Below are positions 27,980 to 33,900 of a stretch of 64,000 nucleotides of DNA, one piece after another. Source of the DNA: Gammaproteobacteria bacterium (lineage in GTDB: Bacteria > Pseudomonadota > Gammaproteobacteria > UBA1113); the NCBI GenBank assembly GCA_020051015.1, contig JAGVJQ010000038.1:6485-70484 (forward strand), given 5' to 3'. The position numbers are program-made. Numbering within the stretch: the first letter of the stretch is position 1; each line of letters opens with the position of its first letter.

Positions 27980-30900
27980 TAAGACGAGATTATAGGAGAT
28001 AACTATGCGAGTCACGGAATTGGATACGCGAAAAATTGCTTGGTATTTAAAACCATTTCTGTGGCATCAACAAAAAAAATATGGCACTGTGCTCAACCCC
28101 ACCTTAGTGTGGGCACAATGCCCGAAATTATTCATGGCAGTAGCTAGCTTATATGGTGTTATTGACCGTAAAAAATCACCTATTTCACCCGAGCTTCGAT
28201 CGTTAATCACAGTGCGCGTGTCACAGATCAATTGGTGTCGCTTTTGTGTCGATATCAATTCAGCCACCTTAATTAAGCGATCTGGCTCTGAAGAGAAATG
28301 TAAAGAGCTAGAAAATTGGAAAGAATCAAATTTATTTTCAGCACAAGAAAAGACAGCGTTGGATTATGCAGAAAAAATGACACATACCAATCAGACTGTG
28401 GATGATAGTTGCTTTGAAAAATTAAAACAATTTTTTTCAGAAAAGGCCATTATTGAATTAACTGCATTAATTGCTTTTCAAAATATGTCGAGTAAATTTA
28501 ATAGCGCACTCGACATTGCACCACAAGGTTTTTGCAATATTAAAAAATAAAGCACTTTTTCATGATGAAGTATTTAGGATGTGTATTAAATCACACCCTA
28601 AATATCCGCGTTATTCTAAATACTATCTCAATTTAGCCACAGAGGCACGACAACCAGCTGCAGCTGCATTTGCACTTGCGGCCGATTCCTTGATATCTCT
28701 ATACCAAAATTGGATTTGACGCACTGATTGTTGCTGTTGCAATATCTTACCTAATTCAAGTCCAACTAGCTCATTGATATAGTTTACAACCGCGTCTTTC
28801 GTAATTCTCGTGTCAGCATCATCATATGCGGTCAAATTTAATAATCCTCTTTTTTCAAATGAAGGACCATCTTTACCATTTTTATAAACAATCCAGTCAG
28901 GATCTTTTGGTTTTATAAAGTACGGGTAATTTTCACATCTATTTTGTGGGAAGGGGTGCATAAAAATTTCGCGGGCTTGATTTATAACATCAAAAATTTC
29001 TAGCTGTTTAAAAAAGTCAATTTCTTCTTGCGATAAGTCTTTCGCACTAATTGCTCGTAATGCTTTGAGTTTATCGATACTATTTTCAAGTTGATTAATT
29101 GCATCAAAATAATAAAATATAGTATCCCTGATTAGCATTTTTTGTGTTTCATTCATAGCCGCTTTTTTAAAGCTAGTATTCGTAAATTGTAAATACAGCT
29201 TTTCTATATTGATGTTAGGCACACCAGAATCCATCAAAGTGTAAAGCCTATCTATGGCAGTTTGTGCTTCTTCAAGGTTTCCTTCTGCTAAACTCTCATT
29301 AAATAATTTGATTGTTTTATTTCTACTTAATTGCAGATTGATTTTATATACTATTTCTTTGCGGCGATAGTTATCCTCTAAATCTAACACATAGTTATCC
29401 TCTAAATCTAACATCGTGATGGTCGTATTAGTCTCCAACATTTCGGCAATGGCTTTCGCATCCTTAGTAGAAATATTACAATTATTTAAATTCAGTCTCG
29501 TGATGGTATTATTAAGTTTCAACATCTCAACCAGAGCACTTAAAACCTCCCCAAAGATACTTAACATGCCATGCAAGTCCAATGTTGTGACGGTGGTATT
29601 ATTTTTTAGCGCCTCAGCTAAACCAGCCACATCGATTGTATTAAAGGAATGCATACCTAAATCCAGCACCGAGCTGTCTCCATTTGACTCCGGTATCTGA
29701 CTATAACGATTAAAGAAATGCTTATGTAAATCCAGCACCGAGCTGTCTCCATTTGACTCCAGTATCTGACTATAACGATTACAGGCATCAATTATTTGAT
29801 TTCTTTCTATTAATTTACTAATTTCATTTATCGCCTCAGCAGATATTTTTTTATCATTTTTAGCAAGGCTTTTACAACCACCCTTTAACCCCAGTCTTAT
29901 GATGTTAGTATTATCCATTAACGCCTTAGTCAAAGCGACTGCGCCTACATTGCCAATTTTCGTATATTCCAACTGCAACTCTTTGAGGGTGTTATTTGTT
30001 TTCAGCATGTTAGCCAAACTGATTGCACCTTCGCTACTAATAGTATTATCATCTAAATTTACTTTTGTGATGGTGGAATTTTCTTGAAACATCTCAACGA
30101 TGGCGTCCACTCCTACATCACCAATTTCGCAACCTTCCAACTCCAATTCGGTAAGAGTAATATTAGCCTTCAATGCTTCAGCCAAAACGGCAACACCCAC
30201 ATCACCAATCTCGCACCGAAATAGCTCTAATGCCGTAATGCTCTTATTTGTTTTTAATATTTGAGCGATGTTATTAACATCTTCAATACTGAGCTTATAG
30301 AACTTTAAGCTCAATTTCTTGATAGAAGGATTATTCTTAAGGAACTCGATTAAAGCAATTGTTTCTAGTTCACTAACTTTTTTACGCTCCAATTTCAGTA
30401 TGCTATTATCACTCTTTAACATCTTGATGTAAGTGTTAATAACCTTGATTTCTTGGTTTCTTTTTAATAGTTCGTCAATATTGCTTCGCACTACAGGATC
30501 AATATTATTACCATCTAAATTTAACGTCGTGAGGGTCGTATTAGTTTGCAACATCTCAATAATGGCTGTTGCACCGACATCGCTAATTTGGTTATTCTGC
30601 AAGTTCAATGTTGTGATGGAGGCATTGCTTTTTAACATTTCAGCCAAGACAGCCACTTCCATATCACCAGTTTGATTTCGGTATAAGTTTAAATTTATGA
30701 TGGTGGTATTTTCTTTCAATAGTTCGGCCAAGACAGCCGCCCCCTCTATCCCAATCACTTGTCCATCCAAATTTAGTGTTTTACAGCCGTTATTGTTTTC
30801 AAAAATCTTATTCAAGGTGACAATGTCTAACACTTCAATTTCACGCTTATCATCGTTTTTTGTATTGAATACATATATGCTCTTCATTGCCTTAATGATA

Positions 30901-33900
30901 ATTTTTAAAATGGGGATTCTTTTATTTCTTGTTAATAGTTTTTCAATATCAGCTAGAATTACAGGATTTATTTCGTTGTCATTTAAAATTAGTTTCGTAA
31001 TTGTGGAATTAGTCATCAAGGCATAGCGCAATACTGCCGCACCATCATTACCAATTTCATTATTATGTAAGTCTAAAGTTGTGATGGTTGAATTAGTCTT
31101 TAATATTTCAGCAATGGCTTTTGCGCCATTAGACCCAATCTTGTTACCACTTAAATTTAATGTTTTGAGAGTAGTATTATCTTTCAACGCTGCCGGCAAT
31201 ATTGTTACACCGTCATCACCTATTTCACTATCATGCATGTCTAGTACGGTATAATCCTTATTTTTCTTAAGCATATCAACTAAGGTTACTGCATCTATAA
31301 TGTTAACTTCCTTACCATGTATATCAACGAGCCTGAAGCCTTGTTCGTTCTGCAGTACCTTTGCAATGGCCCTAAAAGCACCAATTTTTTTATTTCTCTT
31401 TAGTTTCCCGCATAATTCTTCATCAAAAACCCAAGTGCCACGGCCATTTACATTCAGCATGGTAAGGGTAGTGTTATCGTTAAGTGCATTAACTAAAGCC
31501 TTTGCACCATCAGAGCCAACATCATTGTTAGCTAAGTACAATGTCGTGAGAGAGGTATTACTCTTTAACATCTCAGCGATGGATATTGCGCCACTATTAT
31601 CAATTTTGTTATTAGCCAAGTTCAATGTCGTGATAGTGGTATTAGCATTCAGTATTTCGGCAAGAGCATTTGCTCCGACAGAACCGATATTGTTATTATG
31701 TAAATCTAACTCAACTATAGTAGTATTAGATCTAAGTACAGCGGCCAAGACAACTGCACCTCCATTACTAATCTCGTGGTTATGCAAGTCCAGCGCTATG
31801 AAATCCTTATTCGCTTCTAGCATGCCAGTTATGGCAGTAGTAGTTCCATCATCACCTAAATCATTCATCATACCAATTAATGTAGCAACAACTTTATCAT
31901 CCTCTAATTCGCCCATGACGACATCTTGGACATTATTCAATTTCTTAATGATGGCCTTGAAAACATGAATTCGGTTATTTCTTACCAATAGATTGTCAAT
32001 GATAGCTTGTGATTTTTTGTTAATAATCCAGCATTCATCTAAATTTAATGTTGTAATGGTGGTATTACTATTTAGCATCTCGACCAATGCTTCTGCACCC
32101 GCATCACTAAACTTGTTGGAACATAATTCTAATGTCGTAATAGACTTATTCGTTTTCAACATCTGAGCGATGAGTTTTACTCTCTCAGAATTAATACGAT
32201 TGTTCTTTAGACTTAATTTTCTGAGTACGGTATTATCTCGCATAGCTTCATTAAGCTGGACAACATCACTATCGCTTAAAGGTATATCGCAAAAAGAAAT
32301 CTCCTTTTCTTGATTTGCCTTGATAAGTGTTATTAATTCGCGAAAGTTTTTTACATTTGCCGTCATTGTATTTCCTGATTTTGCTTAACTCAATGAAAAT
32401 AGGTGATTATTTTGTGTAGTATTTTATCACCCATGTATTAACAAAAAATTAAATAATAAGTAACAACGACTGCTTCAGAATATGGCAAATGTGCGATATG
32501 CTATTCTTAATTAAAGAGCGATTTTTAAGGTGCATATATCATGCCTGTAAAAGACTTAATGAATCAACTCAATAAAGAACCTTCTGCTGAGTCTCCCAAA
32601 GTCGATTTTTTACCCGAAGACTCAATCTATCAAGATGCACGTGAACAAGCCAAACAAGACGGAGAAAAGCAACGTGCTCAAGATGAAAACTTGATGTCAA
32701 TTATCGAAATGATCATTCGATTGTTATTAGGTTTTGGAAAAGAACCTACGCCTGAGGAAGATTTAGAGAATTATATTGGCCCCCCACCAATCCAAATCGG
32801 TGTTTCTAAAACTGATTACAACACCCTTGATCCTACACAACAGGAAAAACTGCAAGGGATATTAGCTAATGTTAATAACGAATTCAATGAATTTAAAGCT
32901 AATCTTGAGAAAGAAGGCGTTAATACAGAAAAATACAGTACCGAAATGCAAAATGGAAGTATTAAAATTAGTATTCCTGATGCTCAACACCGTAGCGAAT
33001 TTACAGAACAAATTGCCGGAAAACTCGATAAAATGGCTGTGAATCAAGGTTTTGATTCGCCACTTAAAACAGCTAATCAAAGTGCTGCTGTTACCAATAA
33101 CGACACTGGCCCAACAACATCTGAAACAGCATCAGTATCAAAATCATCCTCACCTTTTCAAACACCACGTTGTACACCTGGCGGTCGTTCGTAATAATGA
33201 CTGCTAAGGCATATAACCTACTCCACATGCACTCGACATTGCACCACAAGGTTTTTGCAATATTAAGAAATAAAATATCGATTATTTTCGACCAAAATAC
33301 TGAGTCACTTAACTATACCCATCGTACCTCAAGATGCGAGCAGCCCATTCCAAGATCTATGTCTTCGCATTTTCATTAGCGAGTGGTATATATTTCTTAT
33401 TCAATTCTGCTTTATTTAAAGCTTGCATAATAACATCAATTGCTTTTGTTCGAGGAAAACTAGCCCGCCATGCTAGTCCTATCTCACGAAAAGCATGCTC
33501 ATCATCCAACGGCTTAGTACAAAGCGTGGTATTGTAATAATCCATGCGTACCGCACTACAAGGTAAAATGGTGATACCCATTCCTGAAGCAACCATATGT
33601 CGTAAGGTATCCAATGAAACACCACCAACTGTTTGCTTTTGTGTATCATTTTCAATACAAAATGGGCACATTTTGATGATTTGATCACGTAAGCAGTGTT
33701 TCTCTCCTAGTAACAAAATTTTTTCATTAACCAAATCGGCTGGCGTAATTTTTTCATACTGCGATAATGGATGATCATTACGCATCAAAACCACCAGCTT
33801 TTCTTGATAAATTTTCTGTATAACAATACCCGGCTCAGTAATTGGAAAACCTACAAATATTGCATCTACATCACCATTCTTTAGTTGCTCACAAAGATTT

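Follow-up and report, generated by a model that had tools for sequence, protein, structure and literature searches.

Does a short duplication of the 3' end of a gene, with the two copies bracketing a small chromosomal segment, mark the former integration of a mobile element? This question is raised by a locus in the genome of a gammaproteobacterium of the UBA1113 lineage (assembly GCA_020051015.1), which we analyzed in a stretch of 64,000 nucleotides (contig JAGVJQ010000038.1, positions 6,485 to 70,484 of the forward strand; hereinafter the window, to which all coordinates refer unless another contig is named). In this window, the last codons of an AhpD-like gene, denoted CMD181 here, reappear behind a 4.7-kb segment, and the initial annotation of the locus interpreted the two copies as the attL and attR sites of a decayed integrative element. 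Elements that integrate into the 3' ends of protein-coding genes include the ICESt1/ICESt3 family, in fda of Streptococcus thermophilus, and e14 and phage 21, in icd of Escherichia coli. The comparisons described below lead us to favor, with a probability of about one half, another reading, namely that the repeat is an integrase-independent junction duplication that accompanied the relocation or recombination of lineage-native genes downstream of hemF. The locus is a fresh instance of an already known kind of scar and, as such, a modest find.

The duplicated 3' end of CMD181

CMD181 (28005..28550, forward strand) starts 22 bp after hemF and encodes a "peroxidase-related" protein of the CMD/AhpD family. 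Both the CMD fold and the CxxC motif (WCRFC) of this family are present in the protein, which matches Pfam CMD (PF02627) at 1.7e-11, NCBIfam TIGR01926 and the ahpD domain model TIGR00778, with scores under the cut-offs of every specific equivalog model.

Sequence reading, repeat finding and a mismatch-tolerant pattern search all identified a direct repeat of 46 nt, with the left copy, R1, at 28506..28551 and the right copy, R2, at 33229..33274, both on the forward strand. The copies are identical in 45 of the 46 positions, and the sole mismatch (A at 28544 vs G at 33267) converts AAA to AAG in Lys180 and is synonymous. R1 starts at codon 168 of the 181-codon CMD181 and consists of 14 codons (ALDIAPQGFCNIKK), the stop codon and 1 nt, so that the gene is intact through its stop codon with R1 as its 3' end; accordingly, the tblastn match covers residues 168-181. 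The AhpD-family chains available in the PDB align with CMD181 through residue ~175, and R1 thus spans conserved core residues. R2 is non-coding and is located 34 bp past the stop codon of orf217, the gene for a 217-aa protein, and 82 bp before that of oxyR. A stop codon located 4 codons before R2 terminates its reading frame, and no CMD-like coding remnant was detected in the preceding region, which is occupied by orf217. The edges of the repeat are sharp: when the sequences flanking the copies are aligned locally, the scores on either side stay within the range of shuffled sequences. Only these two copies exist in the 64 kb when up to 3 mismatches are allowed (0 expected in 100 shuffles), and a search with each half of the repeat, again with 3 mismatches, likewise recovered only the two sites. 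Thus, the repeat with its single synonymous change and the lack of a gene body upstream of the second copy, both described in the initial annotation, are confirmed, except that 14 rather than 15 codons are duplicated. Among 86 other loci that carry members of the CMD181 family, the best match to the homologous 46 nt is 36/46, which implies that R2 derives from this CMD181 allele, or a nearly identical one, rather than from a distant paralog.

A scan of the genome collection (GTDB) with CMD181 yielded 80 homolog loci, with Candidatus Berkiella sp. as the best named match. The closest homologs are only 76% identical and reside in unrelated redox neighborhoods, including one on a conjugative plasmid of Legionella pneumophila. 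None of the 80 loci is syntenic with the window: neither hemF nor an OxyR of this type, nor an LRR (leucine-rich repeat) gene like that in the segment, nor orf217 is found nearby, and CMD181 is never adjacent to oxyR. A duplicated 3' end of the CMD181 homolog was found in 0 of the 80. On the 88-kb Legionella plasmid (NZ_CP021280.1, positions 7606-8169), the homolog belongs to a thioredoxin, CcdA, cytochrome b and copper-resistance cluster, and its last 135 nt share 77% DNA identity with CMD181; the CMD181 family therefore travels on plasmids in Legionellales.

Several other interpretations of the 46 bp were considered and rejected. The inverted repeat ATTGCA-N12-TGCAAT within the repeat was examined as a recombinase core, but a 6-bp pair of this kind is likely to occur by chance and the RNA fold of the region is no better than those of shuffled sequences, so this reading was dropped. 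A transposon target duplication would be much shorter than 46 bp, and the repeat contains no attC-, GTTRRRY- or dif-like motif that would indicate an integron cassette or a dif/Xer site.

The bracketed segment and the corresponding locus of a close relative

A search with hemF identified contig L081 as the closest relative of the window, with 89% identity for hemF, 88% for OxyR, 86% for the methyltransferase (MTase) and 95% for UvrD. The gene orders differ. In the window, hemF-CMD181-R1 is followed by LRR-orf217, R2, oxyR-o335-2HADH (the last being a 2-hydroxyacid dehydrogenase gene), toxin-antitoxin genes and MTase-uvrD, whereas the order in L081 is hemF, oxyR-o332-PKcyc2, orf255 and MTase-uvrD. 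Both CMD181 and the LRR gene are absent from L081, and relative to this contig, the region from 27983 to ~33368-33392 amounts to a single 5.4-kb indel. The blastn alignment resumes at 33389-33393, with the junction alignment extending weak homology back to ~33369; the spacer behind R2 together with the last ~12 codons of oxyR (33275..33392) has no counterpart in the BLAST alignment and forms the right edge of the indel. In L081 (2296-2318), hemF and oxyR converge so closely that their stop codons share a 4-bp overlap, and OxyR is 8 residues shorter. An ATT microhomology is seen at this junction and only there; the junction can be read as a fusion of the hemF end to the oxyR tail at this microhomology, which is compatible with a deletion in the L081 lineage.

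The initial annotation anticipated related genomes with an empty site in which the AhpD-like gene is directly followed by oxyR. Removal of the segment would indeed place CMD181 tail-to-tail with oxyR, which encodes a genuine OxyR-type regulator (2.6e-56 with the NCBIfam OxyR model, under the equivalog cut-off). The empty site itself was not found, given that L081 joins hemF to oxyR in the absence of an AhpD-like gene and that the 80 homolog loci lack the adjacency. Another relative, L082, with a hemF that is 88% identical, has different genes after hemF, and in more distant relatives, synteny stops at hemF, with the block dprA-smg-topA-tsaC-hemF retained. The two close relatives come from SRR28401816 and GCA_046313575.1. 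A metagenome scan with an OxyR alignment produced a single irrelevant match of 36%.

As originally described, only two genes lie between R1 and R2. The first is the LRR gene (28623..32366, reverse strand), which encodes a 1247-aa protein with ribonuclease inhibitor (RI)-type repeats (Pfam LRR_6, 1.1e-58); its best PDB matches are eukaryotic ribonuclease inhibitor (1dfj, 2.4e-30), LRRC34 and the LRR domains of NLRP proteins. The features of the RI-type LRR_6 class are all present, with 28-residue repeats (84-nt periodicity) arranged in about six super-modules, each of which ends in an L-x-R-N-x-x-I linker. Together with a 69-bp tandem duplication at 29640-29777 (93% identity), the super-modules suggest a recent internal expansion of the gene. 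The C-terminal ~260 aa of the protein showed no match to any family or to viral contigs, and no LRR match was found in the CMD181-homolog loci.

The second gene, orf217 (32541..33194, forward strand), encodes a lineage-restricted protein of unknown function, without a match in Pfam or NCBIfam. A search of 5.8 billion proteins returned only the query itself, a search of 1.84 billion representatives gave two weak matches (E ~4e-4), and neither a scan of viral contigs nor tblastn against plasmids returned anything useful. The essential absence of the family from these two protein sets makes a distant donor unlikely. The only convincing homolog is orf255 of L081 (5075-5842), a 255-aa protein 54% identical to orf217 over 208 aa (E 1e-66). 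It is encoded ~3 kb away, between the Polyketide_cyc2 gene and the methyltransferase gene, which is the opposite side of the oxyR-o335 block compared to orf217; the two loci are homologous only across the coding sequence, and orf255 is not flanked by repeats. The identity is comparable to that of a fast-evolving pair of positional orthologs in the same neighborhood, o335 and o332 (60%). Given this homolog near the oxyR block, orf217, which had been taken for an orphan delivered from outside, appears to be native to the neighborhood.

The composition of the segment does not set it apart either. CMD181, the LRR gene and orf217 all fall inside the spread of the window (z +0.7, -1.5, +0.6), which has a GC content of ~38%, with respect to GC, GC3 and synonymous-codon fit, so that the compositional comparison proposed for detection of a foreign islet gave an ordinary result. 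The expectation of foreign cargo is accordingly not borne out by the native composition and by the orf217 homolog in L081, in a comparison that is only partly informative because the LRR gene and CMD181 are both absent from L081. Taken together, these observations indicate that at least part of the segment was most likely built from genes native to the lineage and the neighborhood rather than from a foreign integrase-bearing element.

We searched for recombinases by scanning against Pfam and NCBIfam nearly all ORFs (open reading frames) of the 64 kb that are 150 aa or longer, together with small ORFs close to the repeat. These scans detected no gene for an integrase, transposase or excisionase in the window, which bears out the earlier statement that no integrase remains, and there is no tRNA gene anywhere in the 64 kb. 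Within the segment, the intergenic gaps are only 72, 174 and 34 bp, which leaves no room for a decayed integrase. The 26-nt core of the repeat had no match in viral contigs or in any fetched locus, and the whole segment, when compared to phage and plasmid collections, had no match apart from the CMD gene itself.

How the duplication may have arisen

Duplications at rearrangement junctions can be produced by illegitimate recombination, including its homology-facilitated form, and by tandem duplication with complementary loss. Under the reading that we favor, at roughly even odds, the 4.7-kb segment with the RI-type LRR gene and orf217 would have been joined to the 3' end of CMD181 in a variable spot after hemF, such that the last 14 codons of CMD181 were kept on the left and a dead copy was left on the right. 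The swapped order of blocks compared to L081 and the location of the duplication edge inside CMD181 suggest two routes to this outcome, neither of which involves an integrase. The first would be a tandem duplication that began within CMD181 and ended shortly beyond orf217; the redundant copies would then have been lost in a complementary fashion, with the result that the [oxyR-o335-x] and [LRR-orf217] blocks exchanged their order. The second would be homology-facilitated illegitimate recombination between strain variants with different genes downstream of CMD181. By either route, the end of the similarity just past the stop codon would be the point at which the gene orders diverge, with selection maintaining an intact CMD181. 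We infer both the direction of events and the mechanism.

This reading is supported by the presence of a unique, sharp-edged repeat at a breakpoint of gene order relative to a close relative, by the failure to find a recombinase in the 64 kb, by the native composition of the segment, by the position of the orf217 homolog of L081 across the oxyR block, and by the lack of 3'-end duplications in all 80 homolog loci. The locus resembles junction duplications in that the repeat is short, unique and sharp-edged, with no recombinase, at a place where gene order has changed. The neighborhood as a whole is a recombinase-free mosaic. Three adjacent variable gaps, tsaC-hemF, hemF-oxyR and o335-MTase, contain different accessory and toxin-antitoxin genes in each relative, and none of them carries a recombinase.

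Several points weigh against the junction duplication. A search of the rest of the window (E<=10) gave no relics of second copies of the LRR gene, orf217 or CMD181, such as would be left behind by lost duplicates, and three events would be required for the duplication-loss route. The similarity extends exactly 1 nt past the stop codon and the gene is perfectly restored; this is what replacement of a gene's 3' end by an element-borne attP classically looks like, and if the repeat is a junction duplication, the exact coincidence with the stop codon must be explained by selection for an intact gene. Furthermore, orf217 and orf255 could be paralogs, in which case orf217 would not be a relocated ortholog. 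The comparison rests on a single informative relative, L081, and the outgroups, in which gene order is no longer conserved past hemF, do not fix the polarity of the indel with respect to L081.

The strongest competing explanation is the one originally proposed, that is, an attL/attR scar. Under this scenario, a small circular element with the LRR gene and orf217 as cargo and with a 46-bp attP mimicking the end of CMD181 would have been integrated by a tyrosine recombinase that has since been lost or acts in trans. The geometry of the locus is canonical for such an event: direct repeats bracket the segment, and one of them restores the target gene through its stop codon, a restoration that would be required because R1 covers conserved core residues. 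The edges are sharp, the copies are nearly identical, and a lone synonymous third-position difference is what attP and attB alleles would be expected to show. Mobility of the CMD181 family is evident from the Legionella conjugative plasmid, and integrase-less elements that retain both attL and attR are already a described class, the cis-mobilizable elements (CIMEs; PMC5704250). The segment resembles CIMEs, as well as ICEs and IMEs, in that it has direct repeats on both sides of the cargo, with the left one completing the target gene at its 3' end, and contains no integrase or transfer genes. It differs from them in the lack of an observed empty site, in cargo that is partly native to the neighborhood and native in composition, and in very short non-coding ends; in addition, a CIME would be expected to share its att site with a related functional element, and no such element or integrase is known, with none found in the 80 loci, the viral contigs or the fetched loci. 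The expectations that follow from integration fail in other respects, too. No integrase, excisionase or pseudogene remnant was found, there is almost no non-coding DNA that could accommodate arm sites, and a tRNA gene is missing from the 64 kb. The chromosomal homolog of orf217 in L081 has no flanking repeats; L081, which lacks the predicted empty site, lacks the target gene as well; the site is not used in the 80 homolog loci, with at most 36 of the 46 positions matched in 86 others; and neither the core, in the viral collection, nor the segment, in phage and plasmid collections, has a match other than the CMD gene. Thus, the duplication, the intact left gene and the lack of a gene body at R2 stand as originally described, whereas the empty site, the foreign cargo, reuse of the site and room for an integrase did not materialize, and an att-type origin of the repeat, which is no longer the most economical reading, now appears doubtful.

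A bolder form of the same idea would have the two 46-bp copies as live att sites of a minimal integrase-less cassette that moves an RI-type LRR effector and orf217 among amoeba-associated Legionellales, with excision and integration carried out in trans by a recombinase encoded elsewhere in the genome. The target would be the conserved 3' end of an AhpD-like gene that is carried on plasmids and spreads horizontally. We consider this improbable. If true, it would represent a compact vehicle for the spread of eukaryote-like effector genes in intracellular bacteria that requires no integrase encoded in cis.

Equally poor prospects attach to the possibility that R2 is the last 46 bp of an older second CMD copy that was once located directly before oxyR and has otherwise been deleted, with the intact copy placed behind hemF. 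R2 does lie where a gene convergent with oxyR would end, the family is mobile, and a second CMD-family gene, CMD126 (25957-26337; identified by the Pfam scan), is located nearby. However, CMD126 is unrelated to CMD181 at this level, the 45/46 identity combined with zero upstream similarity would demand a very recent duplication and a clean deletion ending 34 bp past orf217, and no mechanism is apparent for a gene-exact duplication that ends 1 nt past the stop codon. Chance similarity and misassembly are very unlikely explanations of the repeat, with zero matches expected in shuffled sequences, a length of 46 bp that is too short to cause a 4.7-kb false join, and both junctions lying within otherwise coherent gene contexts.

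With respect to its cargo, the segment is reminiscent of the eukaryote-like LRR effectors of Legionellales such as Berkiella and Legionella; genomes of Berkiella are reported to encode 6 LRR proteins each (PMC9803151). The bacterium studied here is probably itself a Berkiella-like member of Legionellales, judging from the GC content of ~38% and from Candidatus Berkiella sp. as the best named CMD181 match. As in those bacteria, a large RI-type LRR protein is found in a low-GC gammaproteobacterial context of the amoeba-associated type, along with ankyrin-like and TPR proteins and type IV secretion system (T4SS) genes; the unmatched C-terminal ~260 aa of the LRR protein is a difference. As it stands, the locus illustrates the shuffling of effector-type genes in integrase-free variable spots beside housekeeping genes. 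It also offers a cautionary, well-delimited example, in that a 3'-end duplication by itself is insufficient to call an integrative element.

Flanking genes and other features of the window

The variable spot is anchored on the left by hemF (27077..27982, forward strand), which encodes oxygen-dependent coproporphyrinogen oxidase (Pfam PF01218, 1.8e-137) and closes the conserved dprA-smg-topA-tsaC-hemF block. The right anchor is oxyR (33357..34289, reverse strand), the product of which contains the Pfam domains HTH_1 and LysR_substrate and the redox-cysteine motif HCLRDQ...C. As in L081, o335 is the next gene after oxyR; it is followed by the 2-hydroxyacid dehydrogenase gene, beyond which there are toxin-antitoxin genes and gene fragments, the PUA-methyltransferase gene and uvrD. 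In the Legionellales metagenome-assembled genome (MAG) contig L089, a LysR gene located after hemF was examined as a possible counterpart of oxyR and rejected as a different paralog (21% identity).

Upstream of the spot, the accessory gap between tsaC (24360-24911) and hemF spans 24912-27076 and contains an ORF for an ankyrin-like protein, the gene for the 126-aa CMD protein mentioned above and a RelE/HTH toxin-antitoxin pair; in the distant relatives L092-L094, tsaC and hemF are directly adjacent. The gap between o335 and the methyltransferase gene (36369-37835) contains an ORF6N fragment, an HTH fragment and an RHH/MazF pair, and its counterpart in L081 contains the Polyketide_cyc2 gene and the orf217 homolog.

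A hairpin with a 12-bp stem (28572..28603) separates the CMD181 stop codon from that of the LRR gene, immediately within the left border of the segment. Its predicted folding energies on the two strands are -16.6 and -19.9 kcal/mol, with z-scores of -3.7 and -3.9, and it is plausibly a bidirectional terminator-like structure. A simple terminator scan missed this hairpin, which has no T-run; the promoter and terminator scan showed no enrichment, and an Rfam scan of 27.9-33.5 kb gave no match.

Further downstream, the window includes a VirB-type T4SS operon (49225-57935) with genes for VirB4, a T4SS/VirB5-like protein, VirB6, VirB8, VirB9, VirB10 and VirB11. The operon is preceded by genes for a multicopper oxidase and a copper P-type ATPase (44439-48249) and followed by the housekeeping genes alr and dnaB; no relaxase, coupling protein or integrase gene was found around it inside the window.

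A conserved 20-nt intergenic box, ATACCCATC(A/G)T(A/G)CCTCAA, occurs in three copies in the window (33314-33333, 41347-41366 and 6286-6305; 0 expected by chance), the first of which lies in the spacer between R2 and oxyR. The flanks of the copies are unrelated, and the box has no Rfam match in the scanned 27.9-33.5 kb. It is also present in L089 (9951-9974, reverse strand) and L090 (509-532, reverse strand): in a Legionellales MAG, the box is found 27 nt upstream of a hemF that is only 74% identical, with 1 mismatch in 24 nt. The box may be an operator or a short repeat. The spacer between hemF and the LysR gene of the Legionellales MAG contig L089 (10913-11445) contains a nested palindromic MITE-like element of ~480 bp with perfect 22-bp terminal inverted repeats (GGATGTCATTCCCGCGAAGGCG).

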